Translations under genes and position numbers: made by a program
Notes under the pieces: model-generated
What the model was told of the DNA's origin: nothing
The model's input: the letters and a program-made list of their open reading frames with translations, nothing else
Databases searched by the model: none
Shown: positions 6,237 through 35,947 of the stretch, one piece after another
Layout of the letters: every line of letters starts with the position of its first letter
How positions within the stretch are numbered: the stretch's first letter is position 1
DNA from: Candidatus Methanomethylicia archaeon
Lineage (GTDB): Archaea; Thermoproteota; Methanomethylicia; Nezhaarchaeales; B40-G2
NCBI GenBank assembly: GCA_029259155.1
Contig: JAPDJI010000018.1
Coordinates: forward strand, 1-48,865
Direction of reading: 5' to 3'
Length of the DNA stretch: 48,865 nt

Positions 6237-7304
6237 ATGAGGCTAAACTTAGTCTTAAGGAACACCGAGGAAGTGATCTCACAAGAGGAGCTTAAGAGAC
6301 TTCTCGAGGAGAAACCCAGGCCTAAGGCGTATTGGGGTTTTGAGTGTTCAGGGCTCATGCATATAGGGATGGGGCTCATTACAGGGTCTAAGATCAAAGA
6401 CCTAGTCGATGCAGGCTTCGACTATGTCATCTTCCTGGCCGACTGGCACTCTTGGATTAACAATAAGCTTGGAGGAGACATGGAGAAGATTAGACTTGTA
6501 GGAGAATACTTCAAACACTGCTTCACAGCTCTAGGTATCCCACCAGATAAGGTACGCTACATCTGGTCTTCGGAGCTCACAAGCGATTCCAGGTACTGGG
6601 AGATCGTGATAAAGGTCGCTAAGAACTCCACGTTGAACCGTATTAGAAGGTCTTTACCAATCATGGGCAGAGGGTTAACGGAGGGAGGTGACATAGAAGC
6701 AGCTTGGCTAATCTATCCATGTATGCAGGTGGCTGATATTTTCTACATGGATCTTGACGTGGCCTGTGGAGGCATAGATCAACGCAAAGCTCACATGTTA
6801 GCTAGAGACGTAGCTGATAAGCTAGGGTTTAAGAAGCCTATATGCGTCCATACCCCTCTCCTCATGGGTCTAGAGGGACCTGGTGAAGTTAAAGGAGAGT
6901 TCGATGAAGACCAAAAGACAGACTTGAACATAGCATCTAAAATGTCTAAGAGCCTCCCCGAGCGCTGTATCTTCATCCACGACGAGCCAGAGGAAATCAA
7001 GTTAAAGCTTAGAAAAGCATACTGTCCTCCACGAGAAAGCACAGGCAACCCTGTGATGGAGCTGGCAAGGCTGGTGGTCTACCCAAAACTAGGTAAACTG
7101 ATGGTTAAGAGACCAAGCGGCGAAGTAGAGTTTGTGAGTTATGGAGAGCTTGAAGCAGCATATCTTAAAGGAGAAGTTCATCCTCTAGATCTTAAAGAAG
7201 CCATAGCAGAGGCTTTAATCGAAATCTTGAAGCCTGTAAGAGAGTACTTCAAGGGTCGAAGTAAGCTACTAGAAAAGGTTAAGGCGATCGAGGCGACGCG
7301 TTGA
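6237..7304 (+). CDS. tyrS: Tyrosyl-tRNA synthetase
   Basis: YWGFECSGLMHIG (HIGH), YPCMQVAD, GGIDQRKAH, KMSKS. Confidence 0.96.
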   Translation: MRLNLVLRNTEEVISQEELKRLLEEKPRPKAYWGFECSGLMHIGMGLITGSKIKDLVDAGFDYVIFLADWHSWINNKLGGDMEKIRLVGEYFKHCFTALGIPPDKVRYIWSSELTSDSRYWEIVIKVAKNSTLNRIRRSLPIMGRGLTEGGDIEAAWLIYPCMQVADIFYMDLDVACGGIDQRKAHMLARDVADKLGFKKPICVHTPLLMGLEGPGEVKGEFDEDQKTDLNIASKMSKSLPERCIFIHDEPEEIKLKLRKAYCPPRESTGNPVMELARLVVYPKLGKLMVKRPSGEVEFVSYGELEAAYLKGEVHPLDLKEAIAEALIEILKPVREYFKGRSKLLEKVKAIEATR

Positions 7305-31162: not shown

Positions 31163-31762
31163 TTGGCTAGAGGAGCTCTATATCGTGTACCTTTTAGACG
31201 TAGGAGGATGGGGCTAACTAACTATAAGCTTAGGAGAGGCCTACTCCTTTCGAGGAAACCTCTACTTGTTTTACGTAAGACTAACATGCATATCATAGCC
31301 CAGCTCGTTAAGCCTAGGCCACAAGGGGACGAAGTACTAGCCTCAGCTACCAGTATGGAACTTAGGAGAGGCTATGGCTGGAAAGCTTCCTGCAAGAACA
31401 GTTCAGCTGCATACCTGACAGGCTACCTCTTAGGGGTTAAGGCTTCTAAGCTTGGGATAAAAGAAGCGGTACTTAACCTAGGTCTCCACAGACCCGTTAA
31501 GGGATCCACCCTGTTCGCCGCCTTAAAAGGAGCTTTAGACGCAGGTCTAGAAATTCCTCACAGCGAAGAGATCTTGCCAAGCGAGGATAGAATTAGAGGA
31601 AAGCATGTAGAGGAGTATGCTACTAGGCTCGCCAGCGAAGACCCTGAACTATACGCTAAGAGGTTTTCGGGGTATTTAGCAAGAGGCCTTAAGCCGGAGG
31701 AGCTAACTAAACACTTCGAGAAAGTTTTAGCTAAGATAAAGGAAGCCACTAAAACTTTATAG
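31163..31762 (+). CDS. rpl18: 50S ribosomal protein uL18
   Basis: [38 protein letters not shown]. Confidence 0.96.
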
Positions 31763-31809
31763 GCTACCCACGATCTCTAGCCTCAGCTCATCGAGGGAGG
31801 TGATGGTAG

Positions 31810-32461
31810 ACGGCGCACAGCATAGAGTACTGGGTGCCTAAGACTGCAATAGGTAGGATGGTTAAGGAAGGCCTAATAACCAGCATAGACCAAGTCTTCG
31901 CTATGAATCAAACCATTAAGGAGCCTGAGATAGTTGACATATTGATACCAGGGCTAAGCCACGAGATCATCGACGTCAGCCTCGTCCAGAAACAGACGGA
32001 TACCGCCTAATCGCCTTAGGCGGCCGTAAGCTGGGGAGCTCTCCAGGTTTAAGGTAGTGGTAGCTATAGGTAACGGAGATGGCTACATAGGTTTAGGCAG
32101 CGCTAAGGCCAAGCAGATGCGCAACGCCATCGATAAAGCCATAATTGATGCGAAGCTAAACATAATACCTGTTAGGAGAGCTTGTGGAAGCTGGGAGTGT
32201 AGGTGTAATGAACCTCATAGCGTACCATTTAAGGTCACGGGAAAAGCTGGAAGCGTAGAGATAACTCTCATCCCTGCTCCTCGTGGAACAGGACTTGTAG
32301 CCGGAGACGTAGGTAAAATAGTGCTACGCTTAGCTGGCATAAAGGATGTATGGACTAAGACCAAGGGAGAGACGAGGACCGCGCCTAACTTTGCTAAAGC
32401 CATTTACGAAGCCCTCAAACAAACCTATAAAGTCAAAACAGTCTCTAAGTGGGCTGCATAG
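31810..32461 (+). CDS. rps5: 30S ribosomal protein uS5, join(31810..32001,32030..32461), 207 aa, ACG start, contains an intron
   Basis: Exon 1 ...[15 protein letters not shown]...EPEIVD...VQKQTD; exon 2 [15 protein letters not shown]...CGSWEC; frames join after removing 28 nt. Confidence 0.93.
32002..32029 (+). other. 28-nt BHB intron in rps5 mRNA
   Basis: CAG-ACGG-AT^A-CCGCCTAA-tcgcc-TTAGGCGG-CCGT-AA^G-CTG: perfect bulge-helix-bulge. Confidence 0.92.
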
Positions 32462-32463
32462 CC

Positions 32464-32934
32464 ATGGCTAAGCTCCTAGCAGCCATCAGGCTCAGAGGCA
32501 TAGTAGGAGTACCAGAAGATATAGAAGTCACTCTAAAGCTCCTAAGGTTAAACAAGAAGAACCATGCTACTATAGTGGAGGATACCCCGACCTATAGAGG
32601 GATGCTCCAGAAAGCTTCAGGCTACTTGACGTATGGTGAAATAGACCTAGAAACCTTAGCCATGTTGCTTAGGAGAAGAGGAAGACTAAGAGGAAATAAA
32701 CCTGTAACCGACGAGTACGCTAAGAAGTTAGGGCTTAACAGTGTGGAGGAGTTAGCCTCAGCCTTGATGGAGGCGAAGCTTAAGCTTAAAGACCTGCCAA
32801 ACTTTAAACCAGTCTTCAGGCTACACCCTCCAAGCAAAGGCTTCAAGCAAAGCCTCAAAAAACCTTATGGAGCTGGTGGAGAGCTAGGATATAGAGGAGA
32901 AACCATAAATGAGTTGCTTAAAAGGATGATGTGA
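32464..32934 (+). CDS. rpl30: 50S ribosomal protein uL30
   Basis: AIRLRG, TLKLLRL, FRLHPPSKGF, GELGYRGETINELLKRM. Confidence 0.96.
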   Translation: MAKLLAAIRLRGIVGVPEDIEVTLKLLRLNKKNHATIVEDTPTYRGMLQKASGYLTYGEIDLETLAMLLRRRGRLRGNKPVTDEYAKKLGLNSVEELASALMEAKLKLKDLPNFKPVFRLHPPSKGFKQSLKKPYGAGGELGYRGETINELLKRMM

Positions 32935-32937
32935 CGC

Positions 32938-35177
32938 TTATTTAGGCATGAAGTCCTCTGGCTTAGGTATCTCCTTGGGAAGACCTTTACGTTCTCTAAC
33001 CTTCATTATCGTCGGTACGAGCAAGCTCTCAGGTATAGGCTCCCATCCTCTTACTTCTAAAGCCCAGAATGCTCTACCGGCCGTGGCACTCCTTATCTCG
33101 TTCGCTAGATCAAAGGTTTCAGCTACGGGTATCTCTCCTTTAACAGACATTAGCATCCCAGCGGACTCCAAGTTCAAGATCTTGCCTCTCCTCGTAACTA
33201 TTACTCTTGTAAGCCCTGAAATGTAGTCTGGAGGGCATTTGGCCTCTATCTTCATTATGGGCTCAAGTAACGTAGGCTTAGCCGAGAGGAAGCCGCACAT
33301 GATAGCGTCTTTGAGAGCTGGCATCATCTGGGCTGGACCACGGTGTGCTGGGTCTTCATGGATTTGAGCGTCTACCAGTACTACTTTAACCCCTCTAACC
33401 GGCTCGTGACATAATGGCCCCTCAGCCATGGTCCAGTGGAAGCCGGAGATTAGCGTGTCCTTAACTTCTCTCAGGTGCTGTAAGCCCTTCGTTACGTCAA
33501 CGAAGATGTTGAGGTGTTCATCAATCGACCAGATGTTACGCGCTTCATCGGCATCCCAGCCAGCTTTTTCACGTAGTATCTTAGCTCTAACCCTCCAGTC
33601 CTGTCCATCGTAGATCTCGCTGCGCTCGAGCAGTTCCATGGTGGCTGAGTCTAGAGGCTCTACCTTAATGTAGACCCTATTGTGTTTATTAGGGCTCTTA
33701 CCTTCAAAGGGACCAGCTGACTTCCTGATAGTTTCCCTGTAAACCACTATGGGCGGCGAGGTTACGACCTCTAAGCCACCTGTACGCTGTTGAAGATCCC
33801 ATAGTGCTATTTCGAGATGTAATTGACCCATGCCAGCGATCAGATACTCCCCGGTCTCCTCGTTAATCTTCACGTAGAGCGTAGGATCCTCTATGGCCAT
33901 CCTTCTAAGAGCATCCACCAGCTTAGGCAGGTCGCTTGTATGTTTAGGCTCTATGGCCATCGTAACGACAGGCTCGCTTATGTAGCGCAGCCTCTCAAAG
34001 GGCACCATAACCCCTTTCAGTACCTTATCAACTATGGTCTCACCTGCCCTCGCCCTATCCAAGCCCAGCATAGCCACTATGTTGCCTGCCACGACAGAGT
34101 CGCAGACCTCTCTATAAGGACCCATGTAGAGACCTACCTGCTGTATCTTACCGTCATCACGGGCCATAACCAAGTATACATCCTCACCGGTGTATGCCGT
34201 ACCGGAAAACACTCTTCCCGTAGCTACGAGACCTGCATGCGGATCAGAGATTACCTTGCTGACACAGATGACCGTTGGGCCTTTGTCGTCGCAGTTTAAC
34301 ATGGCCTTACCTACTTCGCTTTCCAGATCACCCTTCCACAACTTAGGTATACGGTACTTCTGAGCCTCGAGAGGGTTCGGAACATGCTCAACTATCATGT
34401 CCAGTATAGCTTCGTAAAGCGGGGCCTCCTTGGCCAGCTCCTCTACGTAGCCTTTTTCATAAGCGTCAACTATATTGGAGAACTTGAACCCTTTCCTCTG
34501 CGCTATGGGTACTGTAAGCCCCCATTTATGTAAAGCTGAGCCGAAGGCTACTTGGCCCTTGGCGAAGTCAACCTTCCATACCTTTTTGAACTCAGGCTCA
34601 GCGTAAAGTTCTATGAGCGAGTTGAAGTCCTTCACAATCTCTATGAAGCGCTGCTGAATTTCGTTAGGGGATAATTTAAGTTCCTTGATTAGTCTGTCCA
34701 CCTTATTGATGAATAGAAGGGGCCTGATACGCTCCTCTAAGCCTTGGCGCAGTACGGTCTCGGTCTGGGTCATAACTCCCTCGACTGCATCGCAAACCAC
34801 GAGCCCACCATCCATTACCCTTAGGGAGCGGGTCACGTGGCCTGTAAAGTCGACGTGGCCAGGCGTATCTACCAGGTTTATCACGTAGGGTTTACCTTGC
34901 CACTCGTGGTAGAGAGAGACGTTGGCCGCCTTAACGGTCATCTGTCTTAACTGAGCGCAGGGAGGGAAGAGCCCTCCATGCTCTGCTCTATCTCTACATA
35001 ATCTAAGGCCAACGCCTTCCCCGCTACCTTAGGCGAAAGCATGCCGGCAGCCATCAACAGGCTGTCGCTGGTAGTGGTCTTACCATGGTCTACGTGAGCT
35101 AACGTGCCTATGTTACGTACCTTCTCCCTATCCTTCATCAGCCTTAGTACTTCCTCGGTCTGCTTGAACTTCACCAT
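32938..35177 (-). CDS. fusA: Translation elongation factor EF-2, join(complement 34983..35177, 32938..34950), 735 aa, contains an intron
   Basis: Exon 1 AHVDHGKTT...ALDYVEIEQ; exon 2 [10 protein letters not shown]...DTPGHVDF...NKVD...[11 protein letters not shown] (diphthamide His). Confidence 0.95.
34951..34982 (-). other. 32-nt BHB intron in EF-2 mRNA
   Basis: Minus strand TA-GAGC-AG^A-GCAtGGAGGG-ctctt-CCCTCCcTGC-GCTC-AG^T-TA. Confidence 0.9.
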
Positions 35178-35311
35178 CCCATCTCACCCTCCTTAACATT
35201 GTAGCTAAAGAGCTAGCTTGATGGTCTTATTTAAACCTAGCCCTTGCATCCCCAAGAGAGAGCGATCGAAAGCTTTTCTAGGCCTAACTCTAACTGGTTG
35301 GTGGGTAAGCT

Positions 35312-35947
35312 ATGAGCGCTGGCGGACTCGATTTTAAGCCTACCAGAATGGAGCTCATAGCATTGAGGAGGAAACGCAAGTTAGCAGAGAGAGGCCTTTC
35401 ACTATTAAAGGAGAAGAGAGACGCCCTGGTCATGGAGCTCCTCGAAGTTCTCAGGGAATATAGGACATTAAAAGAGGGTGTTACGAAAATAGTAACTGAG
35501 GCCTACAAGAAACTTGCCGAGGCTAAAATGGAGCTTGGCCCTCTCAAAGTAATGGAGATCGCAGCTTCATCACCTACTTCATACGACGTCAAGCTTCGTT
35601 TAAGGAGTATAATGGGTGTCAAGGTGCCAACCTTAACCTTAAACGAGATTACAGATACCTCGAAGCCTACCTATAGCTTAGCTGACACTTGCAGTAGCCT
35701 CGATGAGGCTGTCAAGGCTTTCAGGGATGCCTTGAACTCCATTGTAAGGCTAGCGGAGATTGAAGCCTCCATCAGAGGTCTCGCAGAGGAAGTCAAAAAA
35801 GCTAAGAGGAGAGTTAACGCGCTTGAAACAGTTATAATACCAAGGTTCGATAAAGCCATTAAGTACATAGAGCTCTACCTAGATGAACGCGCAAGAGAAG
35901 ACGTGTTTAGGATAAGGATCCTTAAGAGTCGTAGAGCTAAGCGTTAA
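35312..35947 (+). CDS. atpD: A/V-type ATP synthase subunit D
   Basis: KPTRMEL, LLKEKRDAL, IMGVKVP, KRRVNALE. Confidence 0.95.
   Translation: MSAGGLDFKPTRMELIALRRKRKLAERGLSLLKEKRDALVMELLEVLREYRTLKEGVTKIVTEAYKKLAEAKMELGPLKVMEIAASSPTSYDVKLRLRSIMGVKVPTLTLNEITDTSKPTYSLADTCSSLDEAVKAFRDALNSIVRLAEIEASIRGLAEEVKKAKRRVNALETVIIPRFDKAIKYIELYLDERAREDVFRIRILKSRRAKR

Follow-up and report, generated by a model that had tools for sequence, protein, structure and literature searches.

How does an archaeon make elongation factor EF-2 when the gene for it is split into two reading frames? The question is raised by contig JAPDJI010000018.1 of an uncultured, hot-spring-type Candidatus Methanomethylicia archaeon, a stretch of 48,865 nt (hereafter the window) whose EF-2 gene is interrupted by a 32-nt insert. 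We conclude that the insert is very probably a genuine mRNA intron of the bulge-helix-bulge (BHB) type, which EndA, the endonuclease of tRNA splicing, would remove, in a host gene not reported before to carry one. We favor this interpretation because the insert lies at a shared site, varies in length modulo 3, contains a covarying stem and an invariant 4-bp helix, and interrupts a gene that is under purifying selection and present at a single locus in an organism that encodes both EndA subunits and the RNA ligase RtcB. A BHB intron had been proposed in an initial annotation made from this DNA alone, and it is the only explanation that we found to fit all of the comparative data.

Structure of the interrupted EF-2 gene

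The gene lies on the minus strand (all window coordinates follow forward-strand numbering) and consists of two open reading frames (ORFs), one of 76 aa at 34947..35177 (-) and one of 667 aa at 32938..34941 (-). Reading of the DNA places the insert at 34982-34951 (-), between the end of exon 1 (..ALDYVEIEQ) and the start of exon 2 (LRQMTV), which divides the locus as follows:

34983..35177, minus strand: aEF-2 exon 1, 65 codons from the ATG at 35177 to Gln65, carrying the P-loop AHVDHGKT
34951..34982, minus strand: predicted BHB intron, 32 nt, running from the last base of the 5' bulge through the inner hairpin and the 3' central-helix strand to the two leading bases of the 3' bulge
32938..34950, minus strand: aEF-2 exon 2, 670 codons plus stop, from Leu66 onward (LRQMTV, the switch I / G2 region)

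When 35177-34983 is joined to 34950-32938 by coordinates, a single frame of 735 aa results, with AHVDHGKT at position 27, DTPGH at 93, NKVD at 147, and HEDPAHRG at 596; the last three motifs and domains II-V are carried by exon 2, and the histidine of the HEDPAHRG loop is the one that we take to be the diphthamide site. The junction is in phase 0, between Gln65 and Leu66 and four codons upstream of the switch-I threonine, and it is identical to the junction of uninterrupted homologues once the insert is removed. Left unspliced, the frame of exon 1 terminates 11 codons past the junction and yields a 76-aa product only. These results reproduce what the initial annotation had read from the letters: the sizes of both ORFs, the position and length of the insert, a 735-aa EF-2 with the effector motif EQLRQMT and the diphthamide histidine after standard BHB cuts, and a stop after 76 codons in the unspliced mRNA.

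Profile matches place the two exons side by side. The Pfam GTP_EFTU profile (188 positions) is matched from 1 to 51 by exon 1 and from 53 to 187 by exon 2 and thus continues over the join, while exon 2 also matches Pfam EFG_III, EFG_IV, EFG_C and D2, as well as positions 66-719 of the 720 in the NCBIfam aEF-2 model TIGR00490 (838 bits against a cut-off of 738). This placement makes the two ORFs neighbouring parts of one domain in one protein, and the match to the family model together with the G1, G3, G4, and diphthamide-loop motifs assigns that protein to aEF-2.

Distribution of the insert among relatives

The initial annotation had suggested comparing EF-2 across related genomes, and this comparison revealed an insert that is shared by a family and a gene that is uninterrupted in most of the class. 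Among 41 relatives, a short EF-2 open frame was found only in the four genomes (three genera) of this archaeon's own family, which we call f1, and in the single genome (G004) of its sister family, f2. All four f1 genomes carry the insert at the identical codon boundary, with lengths of 32, 32, 29, and 29 nt. The N-terminus is included in 27 of the 30 loci examined in relatives, and 23 of these 27 have no insert at the site and read E-Q-(L/M)-R-Q-M-T without interruption. Class-wide, 60 of 62 genomes had a match to EF-2; the open frame reaches at least 728 aa in 47 of the 60 and is interrupted in five (the four f1 genomes and the f2 genome). The last eight, partial or broken, comprise five genes that run off the end of a contig, that of G029, and two more. 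The gene also runs without interruption at three additional loci that bear the labels Thermofilaceae, Infirmifilum, and Thermoproteales.

Five metagenome contigs contained the insert in a scan with a targeted pattern that required conserved flanks and could find close relatives only. One of them is 99.9% identical to the f1 genome G001 and was dropped, leaving four distinct contigs with inserts of 30, 30, 29, and 31 nt; together with the four f1 genomes these make up an alignment of eight distinct sequences (A1), on which the comparisons below are based.

The genome of this archaeon is a 1.55-Mb bin of 47 contigs that is 94% complete, and EF-2 occurs in it at one locus, as it does in each of the other three f1 genomes (G001-G003; the four are 92-98% complete). 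A second complete EF-2 gene supplying the function, which the initial annotation had named among the findings that would refute an intron, was looked for and is absent from this 94%-complete genome.

The EF-2 gene of G004 lacks the f1 insert and has one of its own, 25 nt long, directly after the P-loop (GKTT|TSD; L005 3596-3620, minus strand). Here the central helix is CACG/CGUG, the bulges are AGA and AUU, and the outer helix between the exons has 8-9 bp; the canonical register restores ..TTSDS.., whereas the register of the minimum free energy (MFE) fold, one base off, would make a stop. In this single genome the insert would thus represent a second, independent intron gain in EF-2. A third interrupted gene, that of G029 (L023, G029:C38, ~6700-6730), was considered as a further intron and rejected: it has a deletion of ~23 nt between similar Gly-His-coding stretches, which removes DTPGH and shifts the frame, and we read it as an assembly error or collapse, or as a dead gene, and not as a BHB site.

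All 27 EF-2 loci of the class examined have R-Q-M-T as the context of the switch-I threonine. To our knowledge, other archaeal EF-2s read R-G-I-T at this place.

A bulge-helix-bulge motif at the borders of the insert

The sequence around the insert can be folded into the following elements, whose conservation refers to the eight aligned sequences:

34985..34988, minus strand: GAGC, the 5' central-helix strand, supplied by exon 1 (the Glu64 codon and the first base of Gln65), invariant in 8/8
34953..34956, minus strand: GCTC, the 3' central-helix strand, supplied by the intron and pairing with 34985-34988, invariant in 8/8
34982..34984, minus strand: 5' bulge, AGA, with the predicted cut at 34983/34982; AGA or AAA among the eight
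34950..34952, minus strand: 3' bulge, AGT, with the predicted cut at 34951/34950; AGT or AAT among the eight
34957..34981, minus strand: inner hairpin (helix h'), a 10-pair stem with one mismatch and a 5-nt loop; 98.6% of cells paired

The strands of the inner stem are 34981-34972 and 34966-34957, with a single U/C mismatch, and the outer helix consists of two A-U pairs only (34990-34989 with 34949-34948). A 4-bp helix between opposite 3-nt bulges, the defining feature of the BHB motif, is therefore present, and all four of its pairs occur in 8/8 sequences; cutting past the second bulge base on both sides would excise exactly 32 nt. The MFE fold of the 49-nt core contains the 4-bp GAGC/GCUC helix, the 3-nt AGA bulge, and the 10-pair hairpin with its one mismatch; it thus has BHB geometry for the 5' side, while on the 3' side the bulge hinges on an outer helix that is weak. 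With the AGU bulge and the 2-bp outer helix added, the elements follow one another as they do in tRNA introns: outer helix, central helix, bulge, inner helix along the 5' strand, and inner helix, central helix, bulge, outer helix along the 3' strand. Central helix, bulges, inner stem, and 2-bp outer helix are all as the initial annotation had drawn them.

Motifs of this quality, defined as four Watson-Crick central pairs, at least nine inner pairs, and at least two outer pairs, were found at 70 of 161,018,676 tested (position, length) pairs genome-wide, and that of EF-2 coincides with insert borders that homology sets independently, with an ambiguity of four registers because the same triplet closes exon 1 and the insert. 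In the window, Rfam (31500-35500, E <= 1) yielded no match and ARAGORN called no tRNA. Searches with the 32-mer (up to 7 mismatches) and with the 49-nt core (up to 12 mismatches) found a single genomic copy and no repeat or mobile element.

Evolution of the insert and its flanking exons

The eight inserts have lengths of 32, 32, 29, 29, 30, 30, 29, and 31 nt (2, 2, 2, 2, 0, 0, 2, and 1 modulo 3), and the protein residues that flank them are identical in 8/8 sequences. Both 30-nt inserts contain an in-frame TAG, and in all eight sequences the unspliced reading terminates within 4-16 codons. As the lengths fall into all three modulo-3 classes, no single frameshift rule could fit all eight, and removal of the whole insert is the only rule that serves them all.

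Substitutions in the exons follow the codons. Pairwise differences among the eight sequences at codon positions 1, 2, and 3 number 162, 61, and 764 in exon 1 and 187, 42, and 1160 in exon 2, a pattern that indicates strong purifying selection on both exons and translation of exon 1 in the predicted frame. In the insert it is the pairing that is kept: 99.2% of cells in the eight-sequence structure are paired, and not one of 500 shuffles does as well, although such shuffle statistics overstate independence among sequences that are close kin (exon identity ~86-95%). Six of the 10 pairs of the inner stem have changed on both sides and still pair, and sliding the 3' partners by 1-3 columns leaves only 29-57% of cells pairing. 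The central helix and the outer pairs are invariant, which fits a geometry that is measured by the enzyme.

These observations bear on the simplest alternative, that the gene is broken, whether as a pseudogene, as a gene split into two polypeptides, or as an assembly artefact. ORF annotation does report two pieces, and every source is a metagenome bin or contig. The same insert is nevertheless found in eight distinct assemblies, both exons are under strong purifying selection, the insert keeps a covarying structure, and no other EF-2 locus exists in the four genomes that are 92-98% complete; a split into two polypeptides would, moreover, divide one GTPase domain, leaving the P-loop on one piece and the remainder on the other. 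Taken together, we give a broken gene almost no credence.

A second alternative, which we regard as extremely unlikely, is recoding, in which the insert would be retained in the mRNA and ribosomes would either hop from the Gln codon to a matching Gln-like triplet or shift frame inside the insert. The last triplet of exon 1 does equal the last triplet of the insert (CAG/CAG or CAA/CAA) in seven of the eight sequences, and a hairpin lies downstream of the would-be take-off codon. A short untranslated gap with matching end triplets and a hairpin likewise characterizes the bypass in phage T4 gene 60, and bypass of this type is defined by a landing codon that matches the take-off codon and by a stop directly behind the latter. 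These hallmarks are not found together at the EF-2 insert: the triplets differ in contig L042 (CAG and CAA), and the codon past take-off is AGC/AGU and not a stop. The matching triplets also follow from the symmetry of the BHB motif, in which C closes each helix strand and each bulge opens with A-purine, and the inserts in uS5, aIF5B, and cbf5 described below obey the same BHB cut rule without matching triplets, so that one rule covers four genes. Finally, inserts of 29/32, 30, and 31 nt would each require a different frameshift, and the insert evolves like an RNA stem and not like codons. The 3-nt repeat at the insert ends was also considered as a target-site duplication or hop and rejected on the same grounds.

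Splicing machinery and proposed mechanism

For a BHB intron, the organism would be expected to encode a splicing endonuclease and an RNA ligase, and both are present in this genome. Two genes exceed the cut-off for PF01974 (EndA): the product of one, 183 aa and encoded on contig C1, aligns with the catalytic C-terminal half of the NCBIfam models for the fused enzyme, and that of the other, 209 aa and encoded on contig C6, matches the N-terminal half of these models and, weakly, the beta-subunit models. The enzyme is accordingly predicted from these matches to be of the two-subunit (alpha-beta)2 type. RtcB is encoded as well, on contig C17 (593 bits). ARAGORN predicted introns in 14 of 42 tRNA genes; two of these introns (1.5 and 2.5 kb) are not credible, and one of the calls is a 'tRNA-Stop (tta)'.

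In the mechanism that we propose, EF-2 would be transcribed as a pre-mRNA with a 32-nt archaeal BHB intron. Its 4-bp central helix, with a 3-nt bulge on each strand, would arise when GAGC, with which exon 1 ends, pairs with GCUC at the intron's 3' end, and it would be closed on one side by the 10-pair intron hairpin and on the other by the 2-bp helix between the exons. The two-subunit endonuclease would then cut both bulges past their second base, after which RtcB would ligate the exons into the phase-0 Gln65/Leu66 junction of a 735-aa EF-2, whereas mRNA that escaped splicing would yield the 76-aa fragment only.

That the insert is removed from the RNA without EndA and RtcB, for instance by a different structure-specific nuclease or by self-cleavage and ligation, seems to us very unlikely. 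In its favor, the consensus fold shows no clean bulge at the 3' site. On the other hand, an invariant 4-bp helix with 3-nt bulges and cuts after their second base is exactly the geometry that EndA measures, and this geometry reproduces the junctions set by homology in four genes. The insert is also much too small for a group I or group II intron, Rfam gave no match, and the two-subunit type of endonuclease is reported to accept relaxed motifs (PMC5829648, PMC2738675).

Several points weigh against the BHB interpretation. The fold energy of the single sequence is unremarkable, with a z-score of -1.16 for 76 nt (28 of 200 shuffles as good) and of -2.14 for the 49-nt core (7 of 200 shuffles as good). 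The outer helix has only 2 bp and is invariant, hence without support from covariation, and covariation is likewise uninformative either way for the central helix. RNAalifold favors an alternative pairing of 3 bp (columns 10-12 with 51-53), which converts the 3' bulge into a 1x1 loop; the 3' site of EF-2 is therefore a relaxed motif and not a canonical one. A tuned genome-wide scan for BHB motifs with a restored open frame, at lengths of 14-65, returned 158 hits; with decoy cut positions, six in number, it returned 141-181, so that there is no excess: the motif alone does not identify introns, and homology does. To these we add the close kinship of the eight sequences, the origin of all compared genomes in metagenome bins, a search for RNA sequencing runs over 32900-35300 that yielded none, and the circumstance that we infer the splicing itself, including cleavage, ligation, and circularisation of the intron, from sequence. 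As regards the flanking helices, a strong, covarying inner helix beside an outer helix of two invariant base pairs agrees with the 'relaxed' motif described for cbf5, whose BHB motifs are likewise relaxed (PMC10485636).

Other BHB-type inserts in core genes

Similar inserts interrupt other conserved genes of this genome:

32002-32029, plus strand: uS5 BHB insert, 28 nt, within the uS5 gene (31834-32461), between ..VQKQTD and AGELSRFK.. in the N-terminal domain
Contig C2:13183-13211, minus strand: aIF5B (IF-2) insert, 29 nt, immediately before the switch-I threonine, between ..REVGAM and TQHIGA..
Contig C2:28850-28872, minus strand: cbf5 insert, 23 nt, splitting the catalytic Asp codon after its first letter
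Contig C3:38302-38324, plus strand: radical-SAM candidate insert, 23 nt, before CxxxCxxC, between ..RWYGG and IATADCVGC..

The same BHB cut rule restores the frames of uS5, aIF5B, and cbf5. The uS5 insert combines a central helix ACGG/CCGU and bulges ATA and AAG with a hairpin of 8 bp and an outer helix of 3 bp. All four f1 genomes carry it (28, 31, 31, and 34 nt), with compensating changes in the stem, and G004 lacks it. As it lies in the same window, the initial annotation was right to call the EF-2 intron the 'second' BHB intron, and the uS5 insert is probably the 'first' that it had in mind. In aIF5B, an equivalent insert of 27-33 nt occurs in 17/17 genomes examined from families f1, f2, f3, and f5, with a central helix GCCA/UGGY and an outer helix of 3-6 bp, and is absent in the one f6 genome and the one f4 genome examined. 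The aIF5B intron would thus be older and far more widespread than that of EF-2. The cbf5 insert, compared in this genome only, sits at the border published for the crenarchaeal cbf5 intron (PMC2738675) and serves as an internal positive control for the BHB cut rule; it would extend the range of the published intron to this lineage. The radical-SAM insert is an unconfirmed candidate: only the downstream half of the gene matches Pfam Radical_SAM, from profile position 5, and the remainder was read by eye.

The scan described above does not lend itself to counting. Its loose first version produced 9521 hits, and a stricter filter (inner stem of at least 4) reduced these to 101 and missed EF-2 itself; since the tuned scan shows no excess over decoys and has no statistical power, we claim no total number of mRNA introns. 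Visual inspection of the tuned scan's 38 short candidates singled out aIF5B, cbf5, and radical SAM, and most of the rest resembled gene boundaries by eye (e.g. L34e/kinase, proteasome/CPSF). FeoA, near 78100 on contig C4, was a further candidate.

Every insert seen (EF-2 twice, aIF5B, uS5, cbf5, and radical SAM) lies at or beside a highly conserved motif, among them the P-loop, switch I, the catalytic Asp, and the Fe-S cysteine motif. The first intron base is A at all six sites, in this genome or in G004, and T in the aIF5B of three relatives (L051-L053).

Comparison with known systems

Protein-coding genes rarely contain introns of the tRNA type. According to a 2023 review, splicing by the endonuclease applies to 'at least two archaeal genes', namely cbf5 and HVO_1309, with further cases to be expected (PMC10485636), and excerpts of a 2026 review of non-canonical splicing mention archaea for tRNA only (PMC13149111). 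Our full-text literature search returned no report of EF-2, aIF5B, or uS5 introns and none that pairs Nezhaarchaeota with introns; supplements and many subscription papers lay outside this search. The mechanism is known, and the host gene and the site appear to be new.

One of the closest precedents is the cbf5 intron of Crenarchaeota (Desulfurococcales, Sulfolobales), which resembles that of EF-2 in its cut rule, its variable internal region, and its lineage-specific presence (PMC2738675, PMC10485636). It is cut between the second and third bulge residues by a hetero-oligomeric splicing endonuclease, and its cleavage has been demonstrated (PMC2738675), whereas here splicing is predicted, the host gene is EF-2, the site is switch I of a GTPase, and the lineage lies outside the orders that the paper names. 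The HVO_1309 mRNA of Haloferax volcanii is likewise an archaeal mRNA cut by the tRNA endonuclease, and its spliced RNA is reported to be the major product (PMC10485636), but the enzyme there is of the homodimeric alpha2 type and the host is a euryarchaeon. BHB introns in archaeal tRNA and rRNA share the geometry of the motif and the expected enzymes, EndA and RtcB, and the 32 nt of EF-2 falls inside the range of 11-175 nt quoted for tRNA introns (PMC2738675). Unlike these, EF-2 would be a translated mRNA, in which splicing must restore the frame and compete with ribosomes.

A parallel is found in eukaryotes, where the XBP1 intron is 26 nt long and RtcB is its ligase. IRE1-dependent splicing of XBP1/HAC1 is, like the process proposed here, independent of the spliceosome, carried out by a protein endonuclease on a very short mRNA intron, and it changes the reading frame (PMC13149111); the nuclease and the recognition motif differ, and splicing there is regulated by stress.

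Implications

In this class of archaea, the EF-2 intron may belong to a set of short BHB introns that lie exactly at the catalytic or most conserved motifs of core translation genes, comprising EF-2 switch I (in one family), the EF-2 P-loop (in the sister family), the position before the switch-I threonine of aIF5B (in four families), the N-terminal domain of uS5, and the catalytic Asp of Cbf5. Such a set might make production of the translation apparatus depend on EndA and RtcB and so act as a feedback gate between tRNA maturation and the supply of ribosomes and factors, with a logic like that of IRE1/XBP1. We consider this tentative idea rather improbable, and a regulatory use of the EF-2 intron is something that we would at most infer. 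As an alternative to a feedback gate, the inserts may be selfish BHB elements, formerly mobile, that persist only at places where losing them imprecisely is lethal. A broader pattern in which the most conserved motifs of several core translation genes carry introns would, if confirmed, be highly interesting.

If our interpretation of the EF-2 insert is correct, it has several consequences. EF-2 is a common phylogenetic marker, and in these lineages gene callers will list it as a truncated gene or a pseudogene. The intron would offer a substrate, backed by covariation, for gauging how much relaxation of the motif the two-subunit endonuclease accepts, and two sister families would have gained introns in one gene, each at its own site. 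An essential and very highly expressed translation factor of these archaea would depend on the tRNA-splicing machinery, and the question would arise of how splicing outruns coupled translation.

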